Assembly (NCBI GenBank): GCA_964187785.1
Contig: OZ076409.1
Location: forward strand, 73,348,001 to 73,412,000
Reading direction: 5' to 3'
DNA: 64,000 nucleotides
Source of the DNA: Amphiscolops sp. MND2022
Taxonomy: Eukaryota
The notes under the pieces are model-generated. The model was not told where the DNA came from and ran no database searches. It saw only the letters and a list, made by a program, of their open reading frames with translations. A program made the position numbers and the translations under genes. The stretch's first letter is position 1. Each line of letters starts with the position of its first letter. This document shows positions 1 through 23,522 of this stretch, in pieces.

Positions 1-786
1 TGGTCTTCAGTCATTTTTCACACATTCGGAACTTAACTTAGAAAAATTTCAACCGAAAAACCCATTTTTTGTCAGGTCGAAAATTCAAAGTCAGCTTTTT
101 AAGCAAAATTATCAACTCTGACGTAACCAGTGGGGCCCATGATACTCAAAACAACGATTGGGGTTGGTACCAATGGCTCCAATAACATATGAGTCGCGAT
201 AAGACGTTATTTTGAGCACTATGTCTCAATTGAGTTAAAGATCTCGCCAACCAGTGATCACTGTGAAATGTAAATTCATTAAAAATTTACTCATTTTCGT
301 CAATCACCATGTGCACAGAGTGCGTAGGGTGAGTTCCAGCACTATAATGAGGTTTTTGAAGGCATCGGGTTGCTCAAGGGGTGGTATGAGACATTTTTTT
401 CCTATATACTACTGTATTTTCCAAAAGTTTTAGCCCATTATCTGGAAAAACTAACTTGACAAAATACTTTCAACAACTTTATTCAAAGGTTACAATGTAG
501 ATGAACCCAGTGGTTGATCAAAAATTTTCATCTCTTTCGGTTTCCGAAATAATTCCCTTCGAATGTGTTACATTTGTAGCAGGAAAAAAACCGAAACTAA
601 AAAATACGCGATTTTGCTGAGATAGAATCGCAATGGTTGCCCCTAAAATCTCTTTAAATACTTCTAACGCGACCTTATGGACCCAAAATGATTGAAAATG
701 CCATTCACAATGCTGACATGTGCTCTTTCGACGATCCTGGCTAGACAAGTTTTGCATATTTTTCAAGTACCTGTTAACTGAATTTT

Positions 787-834
787 GTGATAGCCTTTTA
801 AGTTGGCCTTGTGTCAACTTGGGAAGGCTATCAC
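787..834. repeat. Short-class internal inverted repeat (representative; also 3456-3498, 5579-5626, 47275-47324 and other short units)
   Basis: GTGATAGCCTTTTAAGTTG-gccttgtgt-CAACTTGGGAAGGCTATCAC. Confidence 0.85.
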
Positions 835-1161
835 ATCAAAAAACTTTCATCAAAAATACTTTTTGTTTATACAATAATGTAGTCGATAGTTATTTTCGTG
901 ATTTTACACTACCGTTAGTACCTTCCGCCAGGTCAGCTGACGATTGCATGCTGTCTTTGATAAAAACGTATGAACACCAAGAAAATTTTGTTGTATTTTT
1001 GTTGAAGAAAAGTATTAATAAATAATAAAAATATAATTCTAACCCTAAACAACTATAAATTTGCTTAACCGTTATTAGTCCTACCACCTATCATCAGCCT
1101 ATGCCATGGCCCGGTGATTAGTAGTACAACGCCCCATAAAGTAGCGACGCCCACAGTCTGT

Positions 1162-1181
1162 GGGCATGCCGAGGCATGCCC
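1162..1181. promoter_or_regulatory. Invariant GGCATGCC-GA-GGCATGCC element (candidate protein-binding site, p53-family RE-like); one per junction
   Basis: GGGCATGCCG AGGCATGCCC is 19/20 to RRRCWWGYYYRRRCWWGYYY; the core is present at all 22 junctions. Function is inferred. Confidence 0.5.
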
Positions 1182-1211
1182 TTCGACGACGTATGGCAAT
1201 TTTAGCGTAGC

Positions 1212-1239
1212 CCGCGGTCACTACCGCGGTAGCAGCTAG
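1212..1239 (+). terminator. Helitron-type 3' terminus: 18-nt hairpin plus CTAG (representative copy)
   Basis: CCGCGGT-cact-ACCGCGG ends 10 nt before the end of CTAG; covarying versions occur at most junctions. Refers to a rolling-circle replication terminator, not a transcription terminator. Confidence 0.7.
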
Positions 1240-4037
1240 GTGGCGGGGGGCTGTCCCCAATAGAATATAGTGAGGTAGGGTAGGGTTCCCTACCGAACAT
1301 TCAGTACTGAAAGACTCTTGTAGTATGAAAATTTTCCGATGTTTTGAGACCGATTTCGGATTCCACCCGTCAGAAGTTTATGATTTTTTGGCCCCCACCC
1401 AGATTTTGGGCACTGATCGCCCCCCACCAGGTTCCATACCCGTGGTTTCGTTGTGACGGGTACACGAGCGACCGTTAGGGGTCAATCAGGGGGTAAAATT
1501 TATAAAAGTGTGAATAACTTTTCCCCCCGTCGTTTTAGCAGGTCCGGTCACTAGTAAAGGTTTGTTGGGCATCATGCAGTGGGTACGGGGGGCCAAACAA
1601 AAATTTTCTATCATGCACCGTTACGGACTTGGCCCCCCGCCCAAACCGCTATTTTACCGGAAATTGCACTTTTTGAACGGGAAGGAGTCGTCTGAGCGCG
1701 GAGTCGTTTGGTAATGTTTTGTAGAGCATCTGAAGACGTGGTGGGGGACATGTAGTTTGCCGACCCCAGTTTACCCCTCGGACGGGAAATGACCGTTATG
1801 TTAGTTTTAAAATTGCCCCCCGTCAACTTTAACCGCTATTTCTGGTGTGAAGGAGTCGGAACAGCGTGTCGGGTGCTATATATCAAAAGTAGCTTTAAAC
1901 AAGGACCTATCAGAAACATGTGGTTTGGGACCCTTTGAACGGACCCGTTAGCCGGAAATAGGGTGACCGCCTCCTTTTTTTGGTGTTAAAACCGTAAAAC
2001 GGGCATTAAAGTGAAATTATCTCGTGAACGCGTGGAGCAATCGTGTCCATCACTCCTACAAGGTTTCATACCCATGACATGGTGTCTTCAGGGGGGCAAA
2101 CAGATCAGCGCTATCTATCACCGTTACGGACTTTGCCCCCCAGCCTAACCGCTATATTACCGGAAACTGCCCTTTTTGACCGGGAAGGAGTCGTCTGAGA
2201 GTGGAGTCGTTAAGTAATGTTTTGTAGAGCATCTAGAGACGTGTTGGGGGACATGTAGTTTGCCGACCCCTGTTTACCCCTCGGACGGGAAATGACCGTT
2301 ATGTTAGTTTTAAAATTGCCCCCCGTCAACTTTAACCGCTATTTCTGGTGTGAAGGAGTCGGAATAGCGTGTCGGGTGCTACATATCAAAAGTAGCTTTA
2401 AACAAGGACCTATCAGAAACATGTGGTTTGGGACCCTTGGAACGGACCCGTTAGCCGGAAATAGGGTGACCGCCCCCTTTTTCTGCGGTTAAAATTGTAA
2501 AACGGGCATTGAAGTGGAATTATCTTGGAAACGCGTGGAGCTATAGTGTCCTTCACTACTACAAGGTTTCATACTCAAGATACGGTGCCTTCAGGGGGGA
2601 AAACAGATTACCGCTATATATCACCGTTACGGACTTGGCCCCCCAGCCTAACCGCTATGTTACCGGAAATGTCATTTTTTGAGCCAAAAGGGTTAGTCCC
2701 AGCGTAGGAACGTCAGGTAACTTTATGTAGAACTCAATGAGACGAGTTGGGGGATATGGTTTCAGTCACCCCCCGTTGACCCGTTAGACCGGAAACGACC
2801 GTTATGTAGTGAAAAATGTAATTTTTATACTTTTTGAAGGCCATTTAGGGCAGGAAGTATCGGTAATATGTCTTTGGACAGTATACAATGAAAGTTTTGG
2901 TGTGAAACAAGCAATCTGAAATATCCGTTATTATGATTCGGAAGTCACACTAACAGCGAAAATGACCGTTATGTAGTGAAAATTTTTTTCACATTTTTTT
3001 TGCTTTCGATAGGTCCTTCAAGCCAAGAAGTAGCTGTATTAGGTCTTTGGCCACTTTATGATGATTGTGGTGTTGTGAGATGACCGTACGAACTTGACCT
3101 TTATAATGCCCCTGAAGTTGCTGCGGCACGAGAAATTTCAGAAAGTTTGTCTTTTCTGTGTTTTGTTGGAATAAACATTTAATTTCATTAAACCAATGTG
3201 CATTCAGGGTGTTTAGAAAGCTTCAAGAAAAGAATTTAATAGGAAACATGGCGGTGAGAAATAACAAATTGCCACGTAAATCCAACCACCGTTGGGGAAT
3301 AAATGTAATAAATTGTTTTGGAAGTGCCAATCGACGTGTATTTGGGGATCATAGCCACGGTATTGTCTATTCGTGTTTCTTTTTGAAGACTTTGAACATT
3401 TTCACTTTATCAGCTTGAGGTTTTAACTCTATATGCTTAATAACCGTTACAATATGATAGCCCTCAAGTTGACCTTGTGTCAACTTGAAAGGGCTATCCT
3501 TTCACAACTGCGCAGCAACAGTGTGATTGAGTGATTTAGTTATTATCCAAGGCCAATTTGAACTTCAACAAGATTTTAACCACAATATTTAAAACTATTC
3601 ATATGATTCTTTCAAAAGGGTAAATATTTAACTAATATTTGACAAAAAAACTCCAACCTTTAATTTGTGGACCGAATAGTAGGAAAACCATGTTTCTTAA
3701 CGTTGTTGGATGAAATTCAAAATGATGCTTTTAAAAGAATAACAATTCTTGACACTATATATTTTTTCTATTTTCCAATAAACTATTTTTCCAAAAGTCT
3801 ATTTTTCCAATAAACATTGTTGATTGATGCCCATTCATAGTGACTGGAAAGTTTTACCAACTGTGGTGTTTTTTTTAATCAGAGGTGAAACCGTTCCCTA
3901 CCGTCGCATAATGTAATTCAAGCCGACGCCCACATGCCAACATCAACGCCCACCGTCCGTAGGCATGCCGAGGCATGCCTTTCGACGACGTATGCCAAAT
4001 CACGCCCCTGCGAGGTCACTAAAGCGGTAGCGGCTAG
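1240..4037 (+). mobile_element. Divergent 2798-bp unit with its own body and ~503-bp internal repeats
   Basis: Body is not obviously alignable by eye to other units, but it shares the junction motifs, the TAGGGT-loop 5' hairpin and the internal GATAGCC..GGCTATC hairpin. Confidence 0.65.
1610..2810 (+). repeat. ~503-bp tandem repeat, about 2.4 copies
   Basis: ACCGTTACGGACTT at 1617, 2120 and 2623; GACCGTTATG at 1791, 2294 and 2797. Confidence 0.9.
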
Positions 4038-6025
4038 GTGGGCGGGGGTAATTCCCCAACAAAAATTACGGCCGGCGGGTTGGGTCCTGCCGGACGTTCA
4101 AATAGCGCGAAGCATCTAGTAGAAAACAAGGAGTCCTGAAACAGCGATTTTAAAATTGAACCGTTAGAATTTGGTTTTAGATTGCATGCGGCCCTAAAAT
4201 CCCCATACGAATGGAAGTTTCTGCTGGCGTTAAGCGATTGAAATAATATATAAAAAGTTATGGCCCATTTTTGGGTCACCGAGAAGGTCAAAATGAAGAA
4301 AATTTTAACTAAGTTGCTGATAACTCAAAATGTGTTAATTTTTGGACTTTGACTGTGAAACAAGCTTGGAACCTTCATTTCGTGGCTGTGGCATTGCACT
4401 GAACACAAAAGATGTAAAGTTTTCACATTTTTTGAAAATTCGACATTTTTGAATTTTTTTTCACTACTATCTGTACACTATATGTCAAAAACACCTCTGA
4501 AAAATTTTTTTATTTGCTTAAATTTAGAAACCTCGGTATCCATGGTTTCCGTCAGTACCTACTTGCTGCCAAACACTCAACAGTTTGCATCCAATGTGAA
4601 AATAAAATTTTTTTCGAGGTCTTAGGTGTTTCACAAAGATTTCTCAACTTAGTATCAATTTACAAATTGGTCATTTTGAACACATTATTTTCATCGAAAC
4701 GTGTCATATACCGCCCTAATGCTCACGAACGGGCCTATTGGCAACGTTGGAACCATTTATAGTAATAAAAAGTTTTAAAAAAATTTTTTCACCCCGTCTT
4801 CAGTCATTTTTCAGTCATTCGGAACTTAACTTAGAAAAATTTCAACCAAAAACCCATTTTTTGTCAAGTCGAAAATTCAAATTCAGCTTTTTAAGCAAAA
4901 TAAATAAATCTGACATAACCAGTGGGGCCCATGATACTCAAAACAACGATTGACACTGGTATCAATGGCTCCAATAACATATGAGTCGCGATAAGACGTT
5001 ATTTTGAGCAATACGTCTCAATTGAGGTAAAGATCTCGCAAGCCAGCGATCACTGTGAAATGTGATTTCATCAAAAATTTACTCTTTTTTGTCAATCACT
5101 ATGTGCACAGATTGCGTAGGGTGCGTTTCAGCACTATAATGAGGTTTTTGAAGGCATCGAGTTGCTCAAGGGGTGGTATCAGACATTTTTGTCCCATATA
5201 CTACTGTAGTTTCCAAAATTTTTACCCCAATATCTGGAAATACAAACTTGACAAAATACTTTCAACTACTTTATTCAAAGTTTACAATATAGATGAACAC
5301 TGTGGTTGATCAGAAACTTTCATCTCTTTCGTTTTCCGAAATATTTTCCTTCGCATGTGTTACATTCGTAGCAGAAAAAAAATCGAAACTGAAAAATACG
5401 CTATTTTGCTAATATAGAATCGCAATGATTGTGCCTAAAAACTCTTTAAACACTTCTAACGCAACCTTACGCACCCAAAATGATCGAAAATGCTATTCAC
5501 AATGGTGACATGTGCTCTTTCTACGATCCTGGCTGGAAAAGGTTTGCATATTTTTCAAGTACCTGTCAGCTAAATCTTGTGATAGCCTTTTCAGTTGGCC
5601 TTGTGTCAACTTGGGAAGGCTATCACATCAAAAAACCATCAACAAAAATATTTTTTGTTTATTGGATCTTACAGTCGATACTTTTTTTCGTGATTCTATA
5701 CTACCGTTAGTATATTTCATCAGGTCACCTTACGATTGCATTCAGTCTTTGATAAAAACCTATGAACTCAAAGTCACATTTATATATTTTTTTGCCAGAA
5801 AATAACATCAAAAATATCTAAAATATATAAAATAGAGTCTTTAACATTTTTACGTTTCAAGTTTCTGCCGTTATTAGGCCAATCAACGTCCTAGAGCCAC
5901 ATCCTGCCACATACTGTACAACGCCACATAGTGTTGCGACGTGCACAGTCTGTGGGCATGCCGAGGCATGCCCTTCGACGACGTATGCCGAATACCGCGG
6001 GCCTACGCCCGCGCTCCCCGGCTAG
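4038..6025 (+). mobile_element. Short-class unit, 1988 bp (head H1, tail b)
   Basis: Close copy of 14774-16763 and 47738-49724; ends CGCGGGC-ctac-GCCCGCG ctccccgg CTAG. Confidence 0.72.
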
Positions 6026-8015
6026 GTGGGCGGGGGTAATTCCCCAACAAAAAAATCGGCCGGCGGGTCGGGTCCTGCCGGCCGTCCAAAATCAAAATCC
6101 TCCTAGTAGAAAACGGCATGTCAAACGAGCTATTTTTTTATTTAACCATTAGAATTTCACCATTTTTTGCATGCGGCCCTGAAATGGCCATACGAGACGA
6201 AGTTCCTGCTGACGTTTTGCGATGTAAATGTTTTATAAAAAGTTATGGCCGATTTGTCATTCACCTAGAAGGGTAAAATGAGGAAAATTTTAACAAAGTC
6301 GCTGATAACTCAAAATGTGTTAATTTTTGGACTTTGACTGTGAAACAAGCTTGGAACCTTCATTTCGTGGCTGGGGCATTGGACTGAACACAAAAGATGT
6401 AAAGTTTTTACGTTTTTTGAAAATTCGACATTTTTGAAATTTTTTTCACTACTATCAGTACCCCATATGTCAAAAACACCTCAGAAAAAAATTTTTATTT
6501 GCTTTAAATTGGAAACCTTGGTATCCATGGTTTCTGTCGGAACCTACTCGCAGCCAAACACCCAACAGTTTGCATCCAATGTGAAAATAAAAATTTTTTC
6601 GGGGACATAAGCGTTTCACAAGGTTTTCATGTTTTAGTATTAAATTACATAGTGGTCATTTTAAACATAAAATTTTGGTCCAGGTATGTCGGATATAGTC
6701 TGAATGCTCACGAACGGTCCTACTGGCAACGTAGGAACCATTTATAGTAATGAAAAGTAATAAAAAAATTTTTTTAACCGGTCTTCAGTCATTTTTCAGA
6801 CATTCGGAACTTAACTTAGAAAATTTTCGAACCAAATACCCATTTTTTGTCAGGTCGAAAATTGAAATTCAGCTATTAAAGCAAAATTTTTTACTCTGAC
6901 GTAACCAGTGGGGTCCATGATACTCAAAAATACGATTGGGACTGGTACCAATGGCTCCTATATCATATGAGCCGCGATAAGACGTTATTTTGAGCAATAC
7001 GTCTCAATTGAGGTAAACATCTTGCAAGCCTGGGATCACAGTGAAATGTAATTTCATCAAAAAATTACTCATTTTCGTCAATCACTATGTGCAGAGAGTG
7101 GGTAGGGTGAGTTCCAACACTATAATGAGGTTTTTGAAGGCATAGGGTTGCTCAAGGGGTGGTATGAGTCATTACTTTCCTCTATACAACTGTATTTTCA
7201 AAAACTTTTAGCCCATTATCTGGAAAAATTAACTTGACAAAATACTTTCAATTAATTTATTCAAAGGTTACAATATAGATGAACACTGTGGTTGATCAGA
7301 AACTTTCATCTCTTTCGTTTTCCGAAATAACTCCTTTCAAATGTGTTACATTTGTAGCAGGAAAAAAAACTGAAACTAAAAAATACGCGATTTTGCTGAG
7401 ATAGAATCGCAATGGTTGCGCCTAAAATCTCTTTAAATACTTCTAACGCGACCTTACGGACCCAAAATGATTGAAAATGCCATTCACAATGCTGACATCT
7501 GCTCTTTCTACGATCCTGGCTGGACAAGTTTTGCATTTTTTTCAAGTACCTGTTAACTGAACATTGTGATAGCCTTTCAAGTTGGCCTTGTGTCAACTTG
7601 GGAAGGCTGTCACATCAAAAAACTGTCAACAAAAATACTCTTTGTTTATAGGATAATGCTGTCGATGCTTCACTTCGTGATTCGATCATGTCGTGAGTTC
7701 CTTCCATCAGGTCAGCTAACATTTGGATTCAGTGTTGGATAAGAACCTATGATTTTCATGACAATTTTAGTTCTTTTTTGTCAACAAAAAGTACAAATAA
7801 ATGATATAAAACATATTTGTAACCTTTAGGAAGTTTAACTTTACCTTTATTTACCGTTGCCATCGCCACCCACCCCCTACGACCTCGCAGTGTCCTCATT
7901 ACAACGCCACATAGTGTAGCGACGCCCACAGTCTGTGGGCATGCCGAGGCATGCCCTTCGACGACGTATGCCAAATATAGCGTTAGCCCGCGGTCACTAC
8001 CGCGGTAGCAGCTAG
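6026..8015 (+). mobile_element. Short-class unit, 1990 bp (head H2, tail c)
   Basis: Body and tail match 41773-43762, which has a different head. Confidence 0.72.
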
Positions 8016-10249
8016 GTGGGCGGGGGTAATTCCCCAACTAAAAATTCGGCCGGCGGGTCGGGTCCTGCCGGCCGTCCAAAATCAAAATCCTACTAGTAGA
8101 AAACGGCATGTCAAACGAGCTATTTTTTTATTTAACCGTTAGAATTTGGGTTTAGATTGCATGCGGCCATGAAATGGCCATACGAATTGAAGTTCCTGCT
8201 GACGTTTTGCGATTGAAACACTTTATAAAAAGTTATGGCCAATTTGTCAGTCACCTAGAAGGGCAAAATGAGGAAAATTTTAACAAAGTCGCTGATATCT
8301 CAAAATGTGTTAATTTTTGGACTTTGACTGTGAAACAAGCTTGGAACCTTCATTTCGTGGCTGTGGCATTGCACTGAACACAAAAGCTGTAAAGTTTTCA
8401 CATTTTTTGAAAATTCGACATTTTTGAAATTTCTTTCACTACCATCAGTACCCCATATGTCAAAAACACCTCAGAAAAAAATTTTTATTTGCTTTAAATT
8501 GGAAACCTTGGTATCCATGGTTTCTGTCGGAACCTACTCGCAGCCAAACACCCAACAGTTTGCATCCAATGTGAAATAAAAAATTTTTTCGAGGTCATAA
8601 GCGTTTCACAAGGTTTTCATGATTTAGTATTAAATTACATAGTGGTCATTTTAAACATAAAATTTTGGTCCAGGCATGTCGGATATAGTCTGAATGCTCA
8701 CGAACGGTCCTACTGGCAACGTAGGAACCATTTATAGTAATAAAAAGTATTTAAAAATTTTTTTCACCCGGTCTTCAGTCATTTTTCAGACATTCGGAAC
8801 TTAACTTAGAAAATTTTCGAACCAAATACCCATTTTTTGTCAGGTCGAAAATTGAAATTCAGCTAATAAAGCAAAATTTTTTACTCTGACGTAACCAGTG
8901 GGGTCCATGATACTCAAAAATACGATTGGGACTGGTACCAATGGCTCCTATATCATATGAGCCGCGATAAGATGTTATTTCGAGCAATACGTCTCAATTG
9001 AGGTAAACATCTCGCAAGCCTGGGATCACAGTGAATTGTAATTTTATCAAAATTTTACTCATTTTTGTCAATCACTATGTGCACAGAGTGCGTAGGGGGA
9101 GTTGTAGCACTATAATGAGGTTTTTGAAGGCATCGGGTTGCTCAAGGTGTTGTATGAGACATTTTTTTCCTATATACTACTGTATTTTCCAAAACTTTTA
9201 GCCCATTATCTGCAAAAACTAACTTGACAAAATACTTTGAGTTACTCTACTCAAAGCTTAGAACATAGATGAACACTGTGGTTGATCAGAAACTATTTAC
9301 TATTTTGTTTTTAGAAAAAACTGCCTTGCATGTGTTACACTAGTGGCAGGAAAAATACCAGTAGCTCCAAAAATCACAAATTTGGACGGACAGACTTGCA
9401 ATGATGCAAAGCAAAAACGTTTCAACAACTTCTGACGCCACTTCTTTTACCCAAGAGGTTCGAAAACGCCATTAACAAGGCTGACATTCGCAATAAATAA
9501 GATCGAGGTCCATTTACTAACACTTAGGTTTCAAATTTGTTTCTGAGAAACCCATTTTTGTCAGGTCGCAATTTCAAATTTAATTTGGGAAGCAAAATTT
9601 TTCACTCTGAAGCAAACCGCTGGGCCCAAATTACTCAAAAACAACAAAAAGACTATCACCATATGCTCTAATAACATATGAGATGCGACAGTATGCTTTT
9701 AACACAAAAACTCTCATCCGAAGTAAACATGTTGAAAGCCTTGAATCACCGTGAGAAGTGATTTCATCAAAAAATATTTCTTTTTCGTCAATCACTATAT
9801 ACACAAAACCCGTTGTGTTAGTTTCAGCCGTGAAATGAGGTTCTACCGTAATATGGGTTGCTCAAGGTGTTGTATAAGAGAAAATCGTCCTCTTTTCTAC
9901 TAACTTCTTCAAATATTTCGACCCTTTGTCACACGAAGTTAATATTCAAAATCTCTTTGAATTGTTTCTTTAGGTTGGGATGAAGTGGTAGAACAATAAC
10001 TTTGATCGAAGAATGCTAGTATTGGTGTTTGGACCATGTTTGGATGAACAAATCGCAAAATCATGAAAAATTTGTTTCTTTTTTTGGTTATTTTGGCAGT
10101 ACTAAAAATGTTAGCTGACAAATAATTTTTTCGATAGCACCATTGGATTCCGCTCAAAAAGTTGGTTATATGACATGTGTAATAACGCCGTATCTTTTCA
10201 ATTTAAATATATTTAAAAAGCCAACTTTTTTGACCAAAATCCTAAAAAT

Positions 10250-11590
10250 CATACCATTTCCTAAAAAATTTCAAATGCACCCCATTTGACGTATAACAAT
10301 AGCACAGAAAACTATCATATACCGATCAACTCTACTCTCATTGTGGAATAATTAGCATTTTGTTTTGAACGAATTTTGATGGATATTAAAAAATTTTGAA
10401 CCCTCCAAATATGGGCCAAAATTACACGAAAAAATTGACCTTAAAATTTTAAAATGTCAAAAAATCATCAAAACTACAGCTTCTTGGGGTTCTATCAACT
10501 CCACGTGGTCCACAGAGTACGCTAAAACAGGTTTTACCCGTTTTTGAGCAATATGTGAAAAAGCCGACATTTTTGGGAAAGAAAAACATCCCATTTCCTA
10601 AAAAAATTCAATTGCACGCCATTTGCCGTATGAGAATAGCACGGAAAACTATCACATACCGATCAACTCTACTTTTATTGTAGATGATTAAAAATTAGTT
10701 TAAAACAAATTTTGACGGATATTAAAAAATTTTAAACCCTTAAAAAATGGGCCAAAATTACACGAAAAAATTGACCTTAAAATTTTAAAATGTCACAAAA
10801 TCATCAAAACCACAGCTTCTTGGGGTTCTATCAACTCCACGTGGTCCACAGAGTACGCTAAAACAGGTTTTACCCGTTTTTGAGCAATATGTGAAAAAGC
10901 CGACATTTTTGGGGAAGAAAAAATAGGCATTTCCTAAAAAAATCAAATGCACGCCATTTGCCGTATAAGAATAGCACAGAAAACTATCATATACCGATCA
11001 ACTCTACTCCCATTGTAGATTATTAGAATTTTATTTTGAATGATTTTTGATGGTTATTAAAAAATTTTGAGCCCCCCAAAAGCGGGCCAAAATTACACGA
11101 AAAAATTGACCTTAAAATTTTAAAATGTCAAATAATCATCGAAACCACAGCTTCTTGGGGTTCTATCCACTCCACATGGCCCACAGAGTATGCCAAACCA
11201 GGTTTTGCGCGTTTTTGAGCAATTTTTGAGAAAGCCGAGTTTTTTGGGGAAGAAAAACATAACATTTCCTAATAAAATTCAAATGCACGCCATTTGGCGT
11301 ATGACAATAGCACAGAAAACTATCACATACTAATCAACTCTACTCTCTTTGTAGATCACCAGAGTTTTGCTTAGAATAAATTTTGATGAATATTTGTAAA
11401 TTTTAAACCCTCCTAATATGGGCCAAAATCACACGGAAAAATTGACCCTAAGGTATTAAAATGTCAGAAATTCATCAAAACCACAGCTTCTTGGGGTTCT
11501 ATCATTTCTATATGACTTTCAGAGTATACCAAACAAGGTATTAACATTGGGCGATAATTAAAAACACCAATTTTATTTTAGAAGAAAACC
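10250..11590 (+). repeat. 4 x ~336-bp tandem repeat
   Basis: AGCACRGAAAACTATCA at 10301, 10638, 10973 and 11309. Confidence 0.9.
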
Positions 11591-11804
11591 ATAATAAGTT
11601 CAATATAAGAAGTGAATCATTCCATATATATACCCTGTCTTATATTTTAAATTAGCGATAATATATATACTTGATGTTTTTTGAAAGTGAGCTTCATAAG
11701 TGGTTGAGATGTGATAATACGTAAATGGATTCCAAGTTTCATCGAAATGTCAAAGGAATACGTCCAATCAACTTCAATCTTAACAATTAGATAACAAAAA
11801 ACCT

Positions 11805-11846
11805 AAGTACATTCCATCTCCCCATCGGGGAGATGAGAATGTACTT
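11805..11846. repeat. Long-class internal inverted repeat (representative; present in all 7 long units, e.g. 22556-22596)
   Basis: AAGTACATTC-CATCTCCCC-atc-GGGGAGATG-a-GAATGTACTT. Confidence 0.85.
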
Positions 11847-12764
11847 TTCAAAAACCAAAAACTTAGATGTTTTTTTTGTAACACTTACTGTAACTGCTGA
11901 AATGATGAAAGAATATTTATGCTTCTAATAACTCCATGATTTTTTGCCTCAGCATTTTTTTTGCAGAACAAAACCATCAGACATATTTTTCGCAGTTAAG
12001 TTCGATCGTATTACCCAGTGAACAAAGGTATGGAAGGATGTTTACAAGTTGTTTCAAAACTTTCCCGCCTTCCAAAATAATGAAACGTCTACACAACCAA
12101 GATAGCAAATGAATGAATGCGGAATGCATCTTATTAGATAAGATAAATAACGTGTAGAACTTACCTTTATCTGAAGTTGACGTTGATTTATGATCTTTAG
12201 AGGATAGTTTGATTTTTGACCATAATAGTGGGAAACTAATTATTATATGAATGATGGCGTGGAAAGCGTTCAGAAATTGTAGTATTTTGGATTCGAGCAT
12301 GTATGCGTGGGTTCCTTTGGTGGCGTTAGCTTAGTGTACATGATGGAAGTTTTCGATCTGTTATGATTAATTTTACTCACGAGTCTTTGTTTTTCCTATT
12401 TTTTTGCCATTAAGTACATTCATTCTATCCCCTTTTCTGAGAATGTACGTTTGTCAAATGACAGTCATCCAAATTTTGCATTCCCGAAGAGTTTAAATAC
12501 ATAACACGTGTTTAGCGTTTCCAAATCACAACCGAGTAACATTCTATTTTTTTTTCTCAAAATTGATAATGGTTTTGATTTTGGTGTCTTCTACTTTCAT
12601 CATCCATCATAACAACCACCTTACCATGTCTCTCGCTTGTCTTCATTTTACAACGCCACATAGTGTAGCGACGCCCACAGTCTGTGGGCATGCCGAGGCA
12701 TGCCCTTCGACGACGTATGCCAAATTTAGCGTTAGCCCGCGGTCACTACCGCGGTAGCAGCTAG

Positions 12765-14773
12765 GTGGGCGGGGAAATTTCACCCCGTTTGTATTCGGCC
12801 GACGGGTAGGGTCCTGGCGGCCGACGATCCGCCTTAAGCTAGCGGTATGTAGCAGAAATTGCAAAAAAAAGACCTAAAATTTAATCTAACCATTAGAATT
12901 TGCTCAAAATTTGCATGCGGCCCTCAAATCCTATTGCAAGACGAAGTTCCTGCTGACGCTAAGCGTTCTATAAACTTTATAAAAAGTTATGGCCAATTTT
13001 TTGTTCAAATTTTCAACATTTTTGGGAAATTTCTAATTTTTCACTTAATATCTCAAAATGTGTTAATTTTTGGACTTTGACTGTGAAACAAGCTTGGAAC
13101 CTTCATTTCGTGGCTGTGGCATTGCACTGAACACAAAAGATGTAAAGTTTTTACATTTTTCGAAAATTCGAGATTTTTGAAATTTTTCTCACTACTATCA
13201 GTACCCCATATGTCAAAAACACATCAGAAAAAAATTTTTATTTGCTTTAAATTGGAAACCTTGGTATCCATGGTTACTGTCGGAACCTACTCGCAGCCAA
13301 ACACCCAACAGTTTGCATCCAATGTGAAAATAAAAATTTTTTTTGGGTCATAAGCGTTTCACATGGATTTTACAACTTAGTTTTAATTTACAAGTTGGTC
13401 ATTTTGAACACAATATTTTCATCGAGGCTTGTCGGCTATAGCCTTAATGTTCTCGAACGGTCCTACTGGCAACGTAGGAACCATTTATAGCAATAGAAAG
13501 TTTAAAAAAAATATTTTCACCTCGTCTTCAGTCATTTTTCAGTCATTCGGAACTTAACTTAGAAAAATTTCGACCAAAATACCCATTTTTTGTCAGGTCG
13601 AAAAATGAAATTAAGATTTTCAAGCAAAATTATTAACTCTGACGTAACCCATGGGGCCTATGATACTCAAAACAACGATTGACACTGGTATCAATGGCTC
13701 CAATAACATATGAGTCGCGATAAGACGTTATTTTGAGCAATACGTCCCAATTGAGGTAAAGATCTCGCAAGCCAGCGATCACTGTGAAATGTGATTTCAT
13801 CAAAAATTTACTCATTTTTGTCAATCACTATGTGCACAGAATGCGTAGGATGAGTTTCAGCACTATAATGAGGTTTTTGATGTAATCGGCCTGCTCAAGG
13901 GTGTGTATGAGACATTTTTTTCCCATATAGTACTATATTTTCCAAAATTTTTAGCCCATTATCTCAAAAACCTAACTTTGCAAAATGCTTTCAAATACTT
14001 TATTCTAAGGTTAGAATATGAATGAACACTGTGGTTGATCAGAACCTCTCAATTTTTTTTTGTTTTCCGAAAAAATACCTTCGCATGGGTTACATTTATG
14101 GCAGAAGAGAAAGCAGAAGATAAAAAATACGCTATTTTGCTAAGATAGAAACGCAATGATTGAGCCTAAATACCCTTTAAATACTTCTAACGCAACCTTA
14201 TGGACCCAATATGATTGGAAATACCGTTCACAGTCCTCACATGTACTCTTTCTACAATCCAGACTGCACATTTTCTGAAAATTTTACATGTAGCTTTAAA
14301 CTGAATCTTGTGATAGCCTTTTAAGTTGACCTTGTGTCAACTTGGGAAGGCTATCACCACCAAAAACTATAAACAAAACTACCATTTGTTAATCGAATTT
14401 TGCTGTCGATGCCTATTTTCGTGATTGTATACTACCGTTAGTATCTTCCATCATGTCAGCTGACGATAGCATGCAGAGTTTGAAAAAATACCTATGAACT
14501 CGAAGACATTTTTGTTTATTATTTGGTAAATAATTTTATTTCTAAATAATAAATAACAACTTCAAACCTTTGAATACTATCACATTTGTTTTCTCTTCCG
14601 TTATCAGTCTTCCGTCACCCATGATCTGAGCCTATGTCATGACCCTGTGATTTGTATAACAACGCCACATACCAACATCAACGCCCACCGTCTGTGGGCA
14701 TGCCGAGGCATGCCCTTCGACGACGTATGCCAAATTTAGCGTTGCCCGCACTCTGGAGTGCGGTAGCAGCTAG
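12765..14773 (+). mobile_element. Short-class unit, 2009 bp (unique head H3, tail e)
   Basis: Bounded by junctions; ends CCGCACTC-tg-GAGTGCGG tagcag CTAG. Confidence 0.72.
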
Positions 14774-16763
14774 GTGGGCGGGGGTAATTCCCCAACAAAA
14801 ATTACGGCCGGCGGGTTGGGTCCTGCCGGACGTTCAAATAGCGCGAAGCATCTAGTAGAAAACAAGGAGTCCTGAAACAGCGATTTTAAAATTGAACCGT
14901 TAGAATTTGGTTTTAGATTGCATGCGGCCCTAAAATCCCCATACGAATGGAAGTTCCTGCTGGCGTTAAGCGATTGAAATAATATATAAAAAGTTATGGC
15001 CCATTTTTGGGTCACCGAGAAGGTCAAAATGAAGAAAATTTTAACTAAGTTGCTGATAACTCAAAATGTGTTAATTTTTGGACTTTGACTGTGAAACAAG
15101 CTTGGAACCTTCATTTCGTGGCTGTGGCATTGCACTGAACACAAAAGATGTAAAGTTTTCACATTTTTTGAAAATTCGACATTTTTGAATTTTTTTTCAC
15201 TACTATCAGACAACTATATGTCAAAAACACCTCTGAAAAATTTTTTTATTTGCCTAAATTTAGAAACCTTGGTATCCATGGTTTCCGTCAGTACCTACTC
15301 GCTGCCAAACACTCAACAGTTTGCATCCAATGTGAAAATAAATTTTTTTTCGAGGTCTTAGGTGTTTCACAAGGATTTCTCAACTTAGTATCAATTTACA
15401 AATTGGTCATTTTGAACACATTATTTTCATCGAAGCGTGTCATATACCGCCCTAATGCTCACGAACGGGCCTACTGGCAACGTTGGAACCATTTATAGAA
15501 ATGTAAAGTTATAAAAAAAAATTTTCACCCGGTCTTCAGTCATTTTTCAGTCATTCGGAACTTAACTTAGAAAAATTTCGACCAAAATATCCATTTTTTG
15601 TGAGGTCGAAAAATCAAATTCAGATTTTTGAGCAAAATTATTAACTCTGAAGTAACCCATGGGGCCCATGATACTCAAAACAACGATTGACACTGATATC
15701 AATGGCTCCAATAACATATGAGTCGCGATAAGACGTTATTTTGAGCATTACGTCTCAATTGAGGTAAAGATCTCGCAAGCCAGCGATCACTGTGAAATGT
15801 GATTTCATCAAAAATTTACTCTTTTTTGTCAATCACTATGTGCACAGAATGCGTAGGGTGCGTTTCAGCACTATAATGAGGTTTTTGAAGGCATCGAGTT
15901 GCTCAAGGGGTGGTATGAGACATTTTTGTCCCATATACTACTGTATTTTCCAAAATTTTTAGCCCAATATCTGCAAATATAAACTTGACAAAATACTTTC
16001 AACTACTTTATTCAAAGGTTACAATATAGATGAACACTGTGGTTGATCAGAAACTTTCATCTCTTTCGTTTTCCGAAATATTTCCCTTCGCATGTGTAAC
16101 ATTCGTAGCAGAAAAAAAAATCGAAACTGAAAAATACGCAATTTTGCTAATATAGAATCGCAATGATTGTGCCTAAAAACTCTTTAAACACTTCTAACGC
16201 AACCTTACGCACCCAAAATGATCAAAAATGTTATTCACAATGGTGACATGTGCTCTTTCTACGATCCTGGCGGGACAAGGTTTGCATATTTTTCAAGTAC
16301 CTGTCAGCTAAATCTTGTGATAGCCTTTTCAGTTGGCCTTGTGTCAACTTGGGAAGGCTATCACATCAAAAAAACATCAACAAAAATAATTTTTGTTTGT
16401 TGGATCTTACAGTCGATACTTTTTTTCGTGATTCTATACTACCGTTAGTATATTTCATCAGGTCACCTTACGATTGCATTCAGTCTTTGATAAAAACCTA
16501 TGAACTCAAAGTCACATTTATATATTTTTTTGCCAGAAAATAACATCAAAAATATCTAAAATATATAAAATAGAGTCTTTAACATTTTTACGTTTCAAGT
16601 TTCTGCCGTTATTAGGCCAATCAACGTCCTAGAGCCACATCCTGCCACATACTGTACAACGCCACATAGTGTTGCGACGTGCACAGTCTGTGGGCATGCC
16701 GAGGCATGCCCTTCGACGACGTATGCCGAATACCGCGGGCCTACGCCCGCGCTCCCCGGCTAG
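14774..16763 (+). mobile_element. Short-class unit, 1990 bp (H1, tail b)
   Basis: Close copy of 4038-6025 with different neighbours. Confidence 0.72.
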
Positions 16764-18760
16764 GTGGGCGGGGGTAATTCCCCAACAAAAATTACGGCCG
16801 GCGGGTTGGGTCCTGCCGGACGTCAAATAGCAAAGAATATCTAGTAGGAAACGGCGACACAGAATCGCGATTTTTAAATCTAACCACAATTTTTTGGACT
16901 TGGAGTGCATGCGGCCCTGAAATGCCCATACGAATCGAAGTTCCTGCTGACATTAAGCGATTGAAATAATATATAAAAAGTTATGGCCCATTTTTCACTC
17001 ACAAAGAAGGGTAAAATGAGGAAATTTTTAACAAAGTCGCTGATAACTCAAAATGTGTTAATTTTTGGACATTGACTGTGAAACAAGCTCGGAACCTTCA
17101 TTTCGTGGCTGTGGCATTGCACTGAACACAAAAGATGTAAAGTTTTTACATTTTTTGAAAATTCGAAATTTTTGAAATTTTTTTCACTACTATCAGTACC
17201 CCATATGTCAAAAACGCCTCAGAAAAAATTTTTTATTTGATTTAAATTGGAAACCTTGGTATCCATGGTTTCTGTCGGATCCTACTCGCAGTCAAACACC
17301 CAACAGTTTGCATCCAATGTGGAAATAAAAATTTTTTCGGGGTCATAAGCGTTTCACAAGGATTTCTCAACTTAGTTTCAATTTACAAATTGGTCACATT
17401 GAACACATTATTTTCATCGAAGCGCGTCAGATACCGCCCTAAAGCTCACGAACGGTCCTACTGGCAACGTAGCAACCATTTATAGTAATATAAAAGATTA
17501 GAAAAAAAATTTTCACCCGGTCTTCAGTCATTTTTCAGTCATTCGGAACTTAACTTAGAAAAATTTCGACCAAAATACCCATTTTTTGTCAGGTCGAAAA
17601 ATCAAATTCAGATTTTTAAGCAAAATTATTAACTCTGACGTAACTCATGGGGCCCATGATACTCAAAACAACGATTGACACTGGTATCAATGGCTCCAAT
17701 AACATATGAGTTGCGATAAGACGTTATTTTGAACAATACGTCTCAATTGAGGTAAAGATCTCGCAAGCCAGCGATCACTGTGAAATGTGATTTCATAAAA
17801 AATTTACTCATTTTTGTCAATCACTAAGTGCACAGAATGCGTAGGGTAAGTTCCAGCACTATAATGAGGTTTTTGAAGGCATCGAGTTGCTCAAGGGGTG
17901 GTATGAGACATTTTTTTCCTATATACTACTGTGTTTTCCAAAACTTTTAGCCCATTATCTGGAGAAACTAACTTGACAAAATACTTGCAATAACTTTATT
18001 TAAAGGTTACAATGTAGATGAACCCTGTGGTTGATCAGAAACTCTCATCTCATTCGTTTTCCTGAATAATTCCCTTCGAATGTGTTACATTTGTAGCAGA
18101 AAAAAAACCGAACCAAAAAAAATACGCGATTTTGCTGAGATAGAATCGCAATGGTTACGCCTAAAATCTCTTTAAATACTTCTAACGCGACCTTACGGAC
18201 CCAAAAAGATTGAAAATGCCATTCACAATGCTGACATGTGCTCTTTCTACGATCCTGGCTTGACAAGTTTTGCATATTATTCAAGTACCTGTTAACTGAA
18301 TTTTGTGATAGCCTTTCAAGTTGGCCTTGTGTCAACTTGGGAAGGCTATCACATCAAAAAACTTTCATCAAAAATACTTTTCGTTTAAACGATATTGTAT
18401 TCGATATTTATTTTTGTGATTTTACACTACCGCTAGTACCTTCCGCCAGGTCAGCTGACGATTGCAAGCAGCCTTTGTTAAAAACCCATGAACACCAATA
18501 TTTTTTTCTCATACTTTTGTTGAAGAAAAGTACAAATAAACAATAAAAATATAATTTTAACCTTTAACAACACTAATTTGTCTTTATCGTTATCAGTCCT
18601 ACCACCCATACCCATCATCATCCTATGCCATGGCCCGGTGATTAGTACAACGCCACATAGTGTAGCGACGCCCACAGTCTGTGGGCATGCCGAGGCATGC
18701 CCTTCGACGACGTATGCCAATTTTAGCGTAGCCCGCGGTCACTACCGCGGTAGCAGCTAG
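16764..18760 (+). mobile_element. Short-class unit, 1997 bp (head H4, tail a)
   Basis: Bounded by junctions; tail resembles that of 1-1239. Confidence 0.72.
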
Positions 18761-21700
18761 GTGGGCGGGGGTAATTCCCCAACAAAAAAATCGGCCGGCG
18801 GGTCGGGTCCTGCCGGCCGTCCAAAATCAAAATCCTCCTAGTAGAAAACGGCATGTCAAACGAGCTATTTTTTTATTTAACCATTAGAATTTCACCATTT
18901 TTTGCATGCGGCCCTGAAATGGCCATACGAGACGAAGTTCCTGCTGACGTTTTGCGATGTAAATGTTTTATAAAAAGTTATGGCCGATTTGTCATTCACC
19001 TAGAAGGGTAAAATGAGGAAAATTTTAACAAAGTCGCTGATAACTCAAAATGTGTTAATTTTTGGACTTTGACTGTGAAACAAGCTTGGAACCTTCATTT
19101 CGTGGCTGTGGCATTGCACTGAACGCAAAAGATGTAAAGTTTTTACATTTTTTGAAAATTTGACATTTTTGAAATTTCTTTCACTACTATCAGTATCATA
19201 TATGTCAAAAACACCTCAGAAAAAAAATTTTATTTGCTTTAACTTGGAAACCTTGGTATCCATGGTTTCTGTCGGAACCTACTCGCAACCAAACAACCAA
19301 CAGTTTGCATCCAATGTGAAAATAAAAACTTTTTCTGGGTCATAAGCGTTTCACAAGGATTTCTCAACTTAGTATTAATTTACAAAATGGTCATTTTGAA
19401 CACAATATTTTCATCGAGGCTTGTCGGCTATAGCCTTAATGTTCTAGAACGGTCCCACTGGCAACGTAGGAACCATTTATAGTAATAGAAAGTTTAAAAA
19501 AATATATTTTCACCCTGTCTTCAGTCATTTTTCAGTCATTCGGAACTTAACTTAGAAAAATTTCGACCAAAATACCCATTTTTTGACAGATCGAAAATTC
19601 AAATTCAACTTTTTAAGCAAAATTATTAACTCTGACGTAACCAGTGGGGCTCATGATACTCAAAAACACGATTGGGACTGGTACCAATGGCTCCAATATC
19701 ATATGAGCCGCGATAAGACGTTATTTTGAGCAATACGTCTCAATTGAGGGAAACATCTCGCAAGCCTGGGATCACAGTTAAAAGTGATTTCGTCAAAAAT
19801 TTACTCTTTTTCGTCTATCACTATGTACACAGAGTGCGTAGGGTGAGTTTCAGCACTATAATGCGGTTTTTGAAGGAATCGGTCTGCTCAAGGGGTGGTA
19901 TGAGACATTTTTTTTGCATGTAGTACTATATTTCCTAAAACTTTTAGCCCATTATCTCGAAAAGCTCACTTCGCAAATTACTTTCAGTTACTCTATTCGA
20001 AGCTTAGAATATATATGAACACTGTGGTTGATCAGAAACTCTTGACTATTTTGTTTTTGGAAAAAAACTGCCTTGCATGTGTTACATTAGTGGCAGGAAA
20101 AATACCAGTAGCTCCAAAAATCACAATTTTGGACGGACAGACCTGCAATGATGCAAAGCAAAAACGTTTCAACAACTTCTGGCGCCACTTTTTTTACCCA
20201 AGAGGTTCGAAATTACTATTAACAATGCTGACATTCGCTATAAATAAGATCGAGGACAATTTACTAACACTTAGGTTATACATTTATATCTGAGAAACCA
20301 TTCTTTGTCAGGTCGCAATTTTAAATTTAGTTTGGGAAGCAATACTTTTCACTCTGAAGCAAACCGTTGGGCCCAAATTACTCAAAAACTACAAAAAGAC
20401 TGTCACCAAATGCCCTAATAGCATATGAGATTCGACCGTATGTTTTTAACACAAAAACTCTCATCCGAAGTAAACATGTTGAAAGCCTTGAATCACCGTG
20501 AGAAATGATTTCATCAAAAATATCCCTTTTTCGTCAATCTTTATCTACACAGAACACGTTGTGTCATTTTCAGCCGTGAAATGAGCTTCTACCGTAATAT
20601 GGGTTGCTCAAGGTGTTGTATAAGACAAAAACTTCCTCTTTTCTACTATCTTCTTCAAATATTTCAACCCTTTGTCACAAGAAGTTAATATTCAAAATCT
20701 CTTTGAAATGTTTCTTTAGGTTGGTGTGAAGTGTTAGAACAATAATTAAGATCGAAGAATGATAGTATTGGTGTTTGGACCATATCCGGATGAACAAATT
20801 GCAAAATCATGAAAAATTTCTTACCATTTTTGGTCATTTTGTCAGTACTAAAAATGTTAGCTGAAAAAGAATTTTTTTGATGGCACCATTGGATTCCTCT
20901 CAAAAAGTTAGCTATATGAACTGTGTAATAACCCCGTATCTTTTCAATTTAAATAATTTTAAAAAGCAAACTTTTTTGACTAAAATCCTAAAAATCATAC
21001 CATTTCCTAAAAAATTTCAAATGCCCCCCATTCGACGTATAAGAATAGCACAGAAAACTATCACATACCGATCGACTCTACTTCCATTGTAGATTACCAG
21101 AATTTTGTTTAGAACAATTTTTGACGGATGCAAAAAAATTTAAACCCTCCAAAAAAGGGCCAAAATTACACGAAAAAATTGACCTTAAAATTTTAAAATG
21201 TCGAAAAATCATCAAAACCACAGCTTCTTGGGGTTCTATCAACTCCACGTGGTCCACAGAGTATGTTAAAACAAGTTTTACCCGTATTTGAGCAATATGT
21301 GAAAAAGCCGACTTTTTTGGGAATGAAAAACATACCATTTCCTAAAAAATTTCAAACGCACCCCATTTGACGTATAAGAATAGCACAGAAAACTATCACA
21401 TACCGATCGACTCTACTTCCATTGTAGGTTACCAGAATCTTGTTTAGAACATTTGTTGACGGATGCAAAAAAAAATAAAACCCTCCAAAAATGGGCCAAA
21501 ATTACACGAAAAAATTGACCTTAAATTTTTAAAATGTCAAAAAATCATCAAAACCACAGCTTCTTGGGGTTCTATCAACTCCACGTGGTCCACAGAGTAT
21601 GCTAAAACAGGTTTTACCTGTTTCTGAGCTATATGTGAAAAAACCGACATTTTGGGGAAGAAAAACATACCATTTCCTAAAAAATTTCAAATGCACGCCA

Positions 21701-23522
21701 TTTGCCGTATGAGAATAGCACAGAAAACTATCACATACCGATCAACTCTACTTCTATTGTAGATTATCAGATTTTTGTTTAGAACAAATTTTTATGGATA
21801 TAAAAAATTTTTAAACCCTCCAAAAATGAGCCAAAATAACACGAAAAAATGGACCCTAAATTTTTAAAATGTCAAAAAATTATCCAAACCACAGCTTCTT
21901 GGGGTTCTATCAGCTCCACGTGGTCCACAGAGTATGCTAAAACAGGTTTTGCCCGTTTTTGAGCAGTATATGAAAAAGCCGACATTTTTGGGGAAGAAAA
22001 ACATACCATTTCCTAAATAATTTCAAATGCAGGCAATTTGCCGTATGAGAGTAGCACAGAAAACTATCACACACCGATCAACTCTACTTCTTTTGTAGAT
22101 TATCAGAATTATGTTTAGAGTAAAGTTTTATGGATATGAAAAATTTTTATACCCTCCAAAAATGGGCCAAAATGACACGAAAAAATTGACCTCAAATTTT
22201 TAAAATGTCAAAAAATTATCCAAACCACAGCGTCTTGGCGTTCTATCAACTCCAAATGACCTTCAGAGTATACCAAACCAGGTATTGCCAATCTTTTGAG
22301 CAATATTTAAAAACACCGACTATTTGGCAAGAACACCATAATATGTTCCATATAAGAAGTGAATCATTCCACATATATACCCGGTCTAATATTTTCAAAT
22401 TAGCGATAACATTAATACATGATGTTTTTTGAAAGTGAGCTTCATAAGAGGTTGAGATGTAATAATACGTAAATGGACCCTAAGTTTCATTGAAATCTCA
22501 ATGGAATACGTCCAATCAACTTCAATCCTAACTATTATATAACAAGAAACACTTGAGTACATTCCATCTCCCCATCGGGGGAGATGAGAATGTACTTTTC
22601 AAAAGCCAAAATTTTCGAATTTTAAATCTTTTGTAACATTGTATGTAACTGTTGAAACGATGAACGAATAAAAATGCTTCTAGTACCTTCATCAATTTTT
22701 GCTTCAGCTCCTATTTCTGCAGAACAAAACCAAAAGACACACTTACAGCAGTTAAGTTCGATTGTATAACTCAGTGAATAAAGGTATGACTGAGGAAGTT
22801 CACAAGTTGTTTCAAAAGTTTCCGGCCTTCCAAAATCATGAAACGTCCACACAACCAAGATAGCAAGTGAAAGAATGCTGAATGCACCTTATTAGATGAG
22901 ATAAATAACGTGTGGAACTTGCCATTATCTTAAGATGACGTTGATTTATGATCTTTTAAGGATAGTTCGATATGTGACCACAATAGTGGAAAACTTATTA
23001 CTATTTGAAGAACACCGTGGAAAGCGTTCAGAAAGGACAGTATATTTGTTTCGAGCATGCATGCGTGTGTTCCTTTGGTGACGTTAGCTTAGTGTACATG
23101 ACGGAGGTATTCGAGAGATTATGATAGAGTTTACTCACAAGTCTTTGTTTTTTAAAACTTTCTATGCCGTTGAGTACATTCGTAAGGTACATCCATCCCC
23201 TTCTCTGGGAATGTACGTTTGCCAAATGACTGTCATCCAAAATTCGTAATCCGGACGAGTTTAACTACATAAACATGTGATGAGCGTTTTCTATTCAAAA
23301 CCGAATAACTTTTTTTTTCTCGAAAATGATGATGGTTTTGATTTTGATGTCTTCTACTTTTATCATCATGCAAACGACCTTACCATGTCTCTCTTCTGTC
23401 GTCATTTGTACAACGCCACATAGCGTTCCGACGCCCACCGTCTGTGGGCATGCCGAGGCATGCCCTTCGACGACGTATGCCAAATGAGCCATACCCGCAC
23501 TCTGGAGTGCGGTAGCGGCTAG
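18761..23522 (+). mobile_element. Long-class unit, 4762 bp (H2, tail f)
   Basis: 3' ~3.7 kb is nearly identical to that of 30274-35037. Confidence 0.72.
20997..22340 (+). repeat. 4 x ~336-bp tandem repeat
   Basis: Same monomer as 10250-11590; ends approximate. Confidence 0.85.

Follow-up and report, generated by a model that had tools for sequence, protein, structure and literature searches.

The usual explanations for satellites with long monomers are unequal exchange and rolling-circle concatemers, both of which keep neighbouring units together. In bacterial integrons, oriented cassettes stand in shuffled order and are joined at sites that are conserved in structure and completed by the start of the next cassette. 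Among transposons, canonical Helitrons start with a 5' TC, read CTAG/TC where they stand head to tail (the slash marks the joint) and insert at A/T (PMC4778049, PMC11417382), and the account given in PMC11417382 places the insertion of known Helitrons at A/T or T/T, not at their own junctions. The Helraiser element carries a 19-bp palindrome 11 nt from its end, the stem sequence of which is exchangeable, and it loses activity when the hairpin loop is changed (PMC4778049). Internal tandem subrepeats are reported as common in non-autonomous Helitron-like elements (PMC4067079, PMC12001565). Elements of the HLE2 group are considered here as defined in PMC11417382 and PMC5148889, and for HINE elements an inverted repeat of 12-15 bp is described 38-60 bp from the end (PMC4067079, PMC5148889). 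Non-canonical Helitrons of Paramecium have CCAA ends and compensatory stems (PMC13085455). Replitrons, which are of the HUH type, have short direct terminal repeats and a right-end hairpin and insert in one orientation after RG; as described in PMC10288648, they occur in the green lineage, stramenopiles and other protists, with fuzzy ends and dispersed insertion.

Layout of the array and its junction module

The window, by which we mean the whole 64,000-nt stretch of DNA analysed, is free of genes and consists of mobile units of 2-5 kb that follow one another head to tail; they belong to several families, stand in shuffled order and are joined at a single 9-nt site with folded DNA on its flanks. 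The array fills all 64,000 nt, and both window ends lie inside units that the edges cut, so no end of the array is in view. The sequence GCTAGGTGG occurs 22 times, always on the same strand, and its copies bound 21 complete non-coding units, of which 13 measure ~1.99 kb (class A), seven 4.4-4.8 kb (class B) and one, unrelated to the others, 2.8 kb (U01). The features referred to below are as follows.

1..64000, plus strand: single array over the full window
786..835, no strand assigned: class A internal hairpin, ~20-bp stem with a small 3'-side bulge
1125..1136, plus strand: TACAACGCC-type box, left edge of the conserved 3' module
1148..1155, plus strand: subterminal 8-mer, CGCCCAC-type, 78-85 nt from the unit end
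1162..1181, no strand assigned: near-invariant double palindrome with a GGCATGCC-GA-GGCATGCC core, 52-59 nt before the junction
1212..1229, plus strand: hairpin A, 10-12 nt before the CTAG end, candidate termination signal
1235..1243, plus strand: junction core GCTAGGTGG, within which the joining point of units lies
1240..4037, plus strand: U01, 2798 bp, with end modules like those of other units
1247..1258, plus strand: hairpin B, in the 5' module, its short stem made of a G-run and a C-run and variable in sequence
1274..1294, plus strand: hairpin C, in the 5' module, with TNGGG(T or G) as its loop and a variable lower stem
4038..6025, plus strand: class A example, with sisters at 14774-16763 and 47738-49724 that have different neighbours
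8016..12764, plus strand: class B example, one of 7 units in the class
11805..11846, no strand assigned: class B internal hairpin, other sequence but same geometry, in 7/7 class B units

The CTAG ends at the further junctions lie at 4037, 6025, 8015, 12764, 14773, 16763, 18760, 23522, 25511, 30273, 35037, 39799, 41772, 43762, 45745, 47737, 49724, 51704, 56472, 60898 and 62877. Class A units (n=13) measure 1973-2009 bp and are 70-99% alike; the length is held (for example at 12765-14773, 39800-41772 and 45746-47737) although identity drops to 70% and a pair may need as many as 229 gap positions, which hints that their size may be constrained. Six class B units are 4749-4768 bp long and one is 4426 bp; their first ~1470 bp are common to class A, and they carry 2.8-4.0 copies of a 336-bp subrepeat (10245-11504 in the example unit). 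An old internal duplicate of ~330 bp, near the length of that subrepeat, also occurs in class B (9550-9879 vs 8828-9159, 70%). The interior of U01, with ~503-bp subrepeats at 1608-2807, shows no relation to classes A and B except for an internal hairpin.

Coding capacity in the window is slight. With the standard code there are six stop-to-stop frames of at least 120 aa, the longest of 129 aa, and with code table 4, applied to 1-13000, frames reach at most 210 aa. Among 51 frames of at least 55 aa, taken from 4 of the 21 units, Pfam found no transposase family; its three hits were below cut-off and unrelated to transposition, and one of them, an influenza polymerase domain in a 77-aa frame at 2992-3222 on the minus strand (E 2.4e-5), is probably due to chance. 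Rfam gave no hit at the gathering score over the 64 kb (best E 2, over 1-17000), and ARAGORN found no genes in the window or in the relative described below. HDV-like, pistol and hammerhead ribozymes were considered by eye, against consensus structures, and set aside, as no conserved pairings and no Rfam hits were found. The CpG observed/expected ratio of the window is 0.97, and its combination with low GC (36%) and a lack of genes suggests that the DNA may come from a eukaryote with weak methylation.

Relatives outside the window are few. A metagenome scan returned 12 loci, of which one, L005, is a true relative that holds the whole module; the profile used included L005, which blastn alone detects at E 3e-24. 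In L005 the palindrome is retained, as are hairpins B and C and the internal hairpin of class B, but CGAG stands in place of CTAG, hairpin A is lacking and the core agrees at 7/9 bases; this single sequence might be a decayed copy. Some 130 nt upstream of its junction, at 746-754, L005 carries a 9-mer perfectly complementary to the sequence that spans the junction (882-890). Six other loci of the scan (L001, L002, L006, L008, L009 and L012) are AT-rich metagenome contigs in which a palindrome with GGCATGCC arms is preceded by GTAG, which we take to be a REP-like pattern; they were rejected as relatives, being unrelated apart from those arms. In an independent run, X2, one contig crosses a junction (7900-8350) at ~88% identity, and a second starts exactly where the core does, as would fit several 3' ends leading to one start. 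Among the sequencing runs listed, three contain a small share of the sequence, and none is an RNA run. Searches of prokaryote genomes (0 and 82 loci) gave no homologue beyond the searched motif, those of viral contigs (0, 5, 0, 0, 7 and 10 loci) gave nothing homologous, and phages and plasmids gave no match. In the literature consulted, we found neither this junction nor a shuffled kilobase array of several families described; that survey covered papers, and Repbase or Dfam may hold an entry for the family. The evidence comes from a single window together with one short relative.

The junctions each sit within a GC-rich module of ~180 nt (61% GC vs 36%), all copies of which are on the same strand, and the 64-kb window holds no module copies beyond the 22 junctions. 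Its order is TACAACGCC box, 8-mer, double palindrome, hairpin A zone, core, hairpin B and hairpin C; upstream of the box, the sequence is family-specific. The core is invariant from -4 to +4 in 22/22 copies and varies at -5 and +5/+6. The double palindrome, for which a hairpin fold is predicted, is present at 22/22 junctions and in L005 (812-831), and every copy agrees at 19/20 positions with the two-half-site p53-family consensus as given in PMC4323202. Its one change, from G..C to A..T, suits a hairpin and the purine/pyrimidine consensus alike. The 8-mer is complementary to the unit start GGTGGGCG, making the two a candidate asymmetric inverted repeat: with G.T allowed, at least 7/8 positions pair with the unit's own start in 15/21 complete units, and pairing is perfect in 4/21. 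The two units that start with GTGGGGGG are the only ones with the 8-mer CTCCCACC, so that own-start pairing is kept (one event); the complementarity is not kept in L005.

Folding is a recurrent property of the unit ends. Of the distinct starts, L005 included, 13/13 are predicted to form hairpins B and C, and the hairpin C motif is found at 22/22 junctions and in L005; several of the end hairpins retain their structure through sequence change. The predicted fold of the module has several branches and is not a single long hairpin. The 5' module prefers to fold on the plus strand in 12/12 cases and the 3' module, with DNA energies, on the minus strand in 13/17; because the two halves prefer opposite strands, and because base composition explains part of the preference, a single folded strand is not established. 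If the cut is placed after CTAG, each unit reads GT...AG like a spliceosomal intron, but by eye it shows neither a pyrimidine tract nor a good donor consensus.

Hairpins also occur within the units. The class A-type internal hairpin has 15 copies, one of them in U01 (3456-3498), and the class B-type is found as well at 562-610 of L005, between flanks that do not align; a further internal hairpin lies at 47275-47324. The two types, unrelated in sequence, both have an apical stem of 8-9 bp, a 1-2-nt bulge on the 3' side and a basal stem of 9-13 bp, and both are kept where the flanks can no longer be aligned; they could be a protein site or a small-RNA precursor. A second, decayed copy of the internal hairpin lies ~310 nt before the end in 5/7 class B units (12414, 23174, 34689, 56119 and 60543).

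Joining of units at the core

Near-identical units recur in the array with different neighbours, and no adjacency is repeated. We compared 3'-sister pairs, which are alike over their last 300 nt, and 5'-sister pairs, which are alike over their first 300 nt. The 3'-sisters shared the start of the next unit in 0/8 pairs and their own start in 6/8 (Fisher p 0.007, with sister pairs partly non-independent and three of the 3'-sister pairs drawn from one triad), and the 5'-sisters shared the previous end in 0/10 and their own end in 5/10; in the all-pairs baseline, the start was shared by 7%. The hairpin-A zone is likewise correlated with the start of its own unit, 2-4.8 kb away (rho 0.24, p 0.008), whereas it shows no such relation to the start only 9 nt away (rho 0.06, p 0.26). 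Linkage persists across the near-invariant upstream box (rho 0.19, p 0.012), which is longer than the core, so the hot spot is not accounted for by the length of homology. The most informative events place the break between -5 and +5/+6, with many single ones confined only to about -5..+21/+29, and exchanges within units are dispersed over approximately +200 to +1000.

Since near-identical units stand among different neighbours, the units were joined singly at the core. Unequal crossing-over and concatemers are disfavoured, as both would preserve neighbours, which are never preserved here. We infer that joining at the core is the work of a site-specific process, and the lack of repeated adjacency, with joins at one short site, argues that the array grows by targeted addition; this suggests an element of transposon type that takes its own junctions as insertion sites. 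The proposal of the earlier note that units were mobilised individually, with their boundary at CTAG, is supported in that sister identity ends at the core on both sides. The neighbour shuffling is a stronger argument for one-by-one joining than the covariation from which that proposal was drawn.

Hairpin A and the Helitron signature

The earlier note had listed 18 terminal hairpins that were said to keep structure and position while changing sequence. All 18 are present with the stems and loops given, 10 or 12 nt before the CTAG end: CCGCGGT-cact-ACCGCGG at 1239, 8015, 12764, 18760, 25511 and 43762; CGCGGGC-ctac-GCCCGCG at 6025, 16763, 49724, 51704 and 62877, with a loop variant at 45745; the stem with a -tg- loop at 14773, 23522 and 35037; CCGCCGT-cttt-ACGGCGG at 30273 and 39799; and CCGCAC-tt-GTGCGG at 47737. 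The junctions, however, number 22 and not 18, and no perfect hairpin is found at 4037, 41772, 56472 and 60898, two of these four junctions being recent sisters. When a perfect stem of at least 6 bp with a loop of 2-6 nt was sought 4-13 nt before CTAG, it was found at 18/22 junction CTAGs, as compared to 0/53 other CTAGs on the plus strand and 0/75 on the minus strand (0/128 in total), and 12/15 distinct upstream 40-mers contained it, versus a mean of 0.019 in base shuffles. Hairpin A is nevertheless less well conserved than the other hairpins and the palindromic box.

The claim that its stems change in a compensatory manner holds in part. Two stem positions are clean, but the CGCGGGC family (6 junctions) is out of register with the other stems, and its hairpin is therefore better described as regained at a similar distance than as compensated. 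With this family left out, nine distinct in-register sequences were compared with 500 shuffles: stem cells were paired in 81% vs 70% of cases (0/500 shuffles reached this value), and the covariation score was 0.325 vs 0.146 (0/500), where relatedness alone can beat such shuffles. Pairs with two-sided change numbered three, which 70/500 shuffles matched, and one of the three depends on an out-of-register row. Applied to the whole module, RNAalifold failed to find hairpin A; its covariation term was unfavourable, at +0.57, with two-sided change in 6/31 pairs. Hairpin A is thus real and under some constraint, while its covariation alone is thin; part of that covariation could come from template switching in palindromes.

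The hairpin had also been read as the 3' signature of Helitrons, and this identification stands for one end of the unit only. CTAG, as the expected CTRR terminus of canonical Helitrons (HLE1), is present at 22/22 boundaries and lies inside the breakpoint interval, and a palindrome (14-18 nt here, against the expected 16-20 nt) ~11 nt from the end is present at 18/22; the remaining four and L005 lack the palindrome, and L005 has CGAG. The spacing of 10-12 nt resembles that of Helraiser, and in both the stem is changeable, but the loops of the array hairpins vary freely. At the other end, none of the eight possible cuts in the core yields a 5' TC on either strand, and the core contains no AT step and, on either strand, neither TT nor TC; at 22/22 junctions the letters after CTAG are GTGG. 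We also considered, and rejected, a second CTAG, followed by T and lying ~81 nt downstream of many junctions, as the Helitron end, since it is absent in several families and sisters are identical across it. The hairpin at CTAG ends, the lack of coding capacity, the internal subrepeats and the spacerless head-to-tail joins are all HLE1-like, whereas a unit start with G, several 5' hairpins and families joined at each other's junctions are not. Because of the 5' end, we do not file the element under HLE1, and that the array consists of canonical non-autonomous Helitrons in tandem seems to us very improbable: hairpins 10-12 nt before CTAG at 18/22 true boundaries and the known Helitron-derived tandem arrays, with monomers of up to 1,996 nt (PMC12001565), speak for it, but the junctions read CTAG/GT, a 5' TC is missing at every cut on both strands, L005 has CGAG, and concatemers would repeat neighbours, none of which are repeated here.

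Helitron2, Helentron and HINE elements are similar in their terminal hairpins, their central tandem repeats and, possibly, an asymmetric inverted repeat. Hairpins are indeed found at both termini, as in HLE2, but where that group has asymmetric inverted repeats of 11-17 nt about 20-60 nt from the end, we find only the 8-mer at 78-85 nt, and in place of T/T or T/C at the boundaries the array has a joint without a T-run. Owing to repeat length and joint, the array is not filed under HLE2 either, although in its way of working it resembles a rolling-circle or cassette element. Non-canonical Helitron classes do exist, which makes a further Helitron variant plausible. The hairpin itself is the lesser feature of this locus; the notable one is a kilobase-scale array of several families that are joined at one short site and whose starts are not those of Helitrons.

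Mechanisms considered for the array

The units are very probably moved by an enzyme supplied in trans. For the mechanism as a whole, the reading we prefer, with a probability of about one half, is that the units are non-autonomous elements mobilised by an HUH-type rolling-circle enzyme and integrated at existing junctions. In this scheme, at least three size classes of non-autonomous units, which share only the end modules and an internal hairpin, would be served by an enzyme encoded elsewhere in the genome that cuts and rejoins DNA within GCTAGGTGG. A unit would be released as a circle whose joined ends are identical to an array junction; because the circle junction would read like any array junction, addition at an existing junction would occur in a single orientation and restore the site. 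Hairpin A with CTAG would act as a Helitron-like stop signal and hairpins B and C as a start signal, the HUH transposase reading folded single strands, and homologous exchange in the common first 1.4 kb would generate mosaic units. An HUH enzyme is favoured by the retention of structure rather than sequence at both ends, by the Helraiser-like spacing of hairpin and CTAG and by the internal subrepeats, and the same end modules on the unrelated 2.8-kb interior and on the metagenome relative are counted for it as well. It is weakened by the lack of a 5' TC and of a T after CTAG, by the absence of hairpin A in L005 and at 4/22 junctions, by 0/51 frames with a transposase, by the lack of a single preferred folding strand, and by hairpin A loops that vary freely, unlike the loop of Helraiser; known Helitrons insert at A/T or T/T and, in the accounts consulted, not at their own junctions. 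As for Replitrons, the core does contain AG and GG, and none of the shared motifs tested was positive in the array, whose unit termini are read from its joins.

Other enzymes could account for parts of the pattern. The simplest account of the core and the shuffling is given by cassettes of a tyrosine recombinase, Crypton-like or, if the sites work as folded single strands, integron-like, in which the core is the crossover and circles recombine into any junction, so that an identical short core, one orientation and shuffling are all expected. CryptonF-1_cRei ends in CACCG and targets CAYCG (PMC9977147), the part of the core common to L005 reads CACCT on the minus strand, and animal Cryptons include non-autonomous families and have no terminal repeats (PMC3212892). 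The shared core would fit the 4-6-bp direct repeat of Cryptons, with the reservation that in arrays a terminal repeat is confounded with conserved ends, and the array resembles Cryptons in having no TIRs, a short motif at the joint and proposed circles that enter a like site. Against this, the inverted repeats of 11-13 bp at 6-8-bp spacing described in PMC3212892 do not flank the core by eye, and covarying hairpins and multi-family arrays do not figure in the Crypton accounts drawn on here. The bulged long hairpins and the pairing of the 8-mer with the unit's own start may be reminiscent of attC sites, but the branched module fold and the lack of a recombinase among the frames tested count against this explanation, and the array differs from integrons in that its units lack genes, it has no integrase and the DNA is apparently eukaryotic. 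We consider a tyrosine recombinase unlikely.

Dada-like DDE transposons without TIRs, for which part of the core would be a target duplication at a multicopy-gene site, are improbable. Repeated insertion into one site would pile families up in tandem, and Dada elements have no TIRs, make 6-7-bp duplications and are described with two families in tandem and only the duplication between them (PMC3706591), much as the families here are separated by a few shared bases. However, subterminal inverted repeats of 9 bp at matching distances are absent, Rfam and ARAGORN found no RNA gene in the window (the array ends lying outside it), the core of L005 matches at only 7/9 bases, and the many covarying hairpins would be left unexplained. 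We give similarly little credence to a complex satellite in which a host nuclease or illegitimate recombination shuffles the monomers at a conserved box; the module would then be a site for protein binding or a promoter, with its p53-type site and GC boxes, or a structured RNA, and no transposon end. The p53-family match and the GC content of the module agree with such a role, and in Meloidogyne satellites unrelated monomers are joined at 17-20-bp boxes (PMC3694981). Yet the breaks lie in the 9-nt core and spare the box that is conserved best, no Rfam family was found, and the module halves recombine freely across the core; moreover, the monomers of the Meloidogyne satellites and of the Paramecium Helitron Mosaic satellite (PMC13085455), which are likewise described as joined at motifs or in seemingly random order, measure ~170 or 44 nt, in contrast to the 2-4.8 kb and structured ends seen here. 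An assembly artefact, in which collapsed repeats or small circles were stitched together arbitrarily, is the least probable explanation. The order of units does rest on the assembly, but an assembler would be expected to switch in long near-identical stretches and not in 9 nt with variable flanks, and the contig of the independent run and L005 hold junctions, which supports the junctions and not the order.

Beyond these alternatives, it is conceivable, if rather unlikely, that the units represent an undescribed class of eukaryotic element with folded, flexible ends that integrates only at resident junctions and so gathers unrelated cargoes of 2-5 kb into an oriented cassette array open to reshuffling, a counterpart of integrons, for which the p53-family site in every unit might serve as a switch. 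If an autonomous partner of the units exists, its enzyme would be an oriented, site-specific integrase that carries kilobase cargo and recognises ends defined by structure. Such an enzyme would matter for the classification of transposons, for the origin of heterochromatic arrays and for use as a tool. A hairpin and CTAG alone may lead to an element being labelled a Helitron even though its 5' end is not that of one, and the core together with the end modules provides a direct handle to the enzyme in the source genome.
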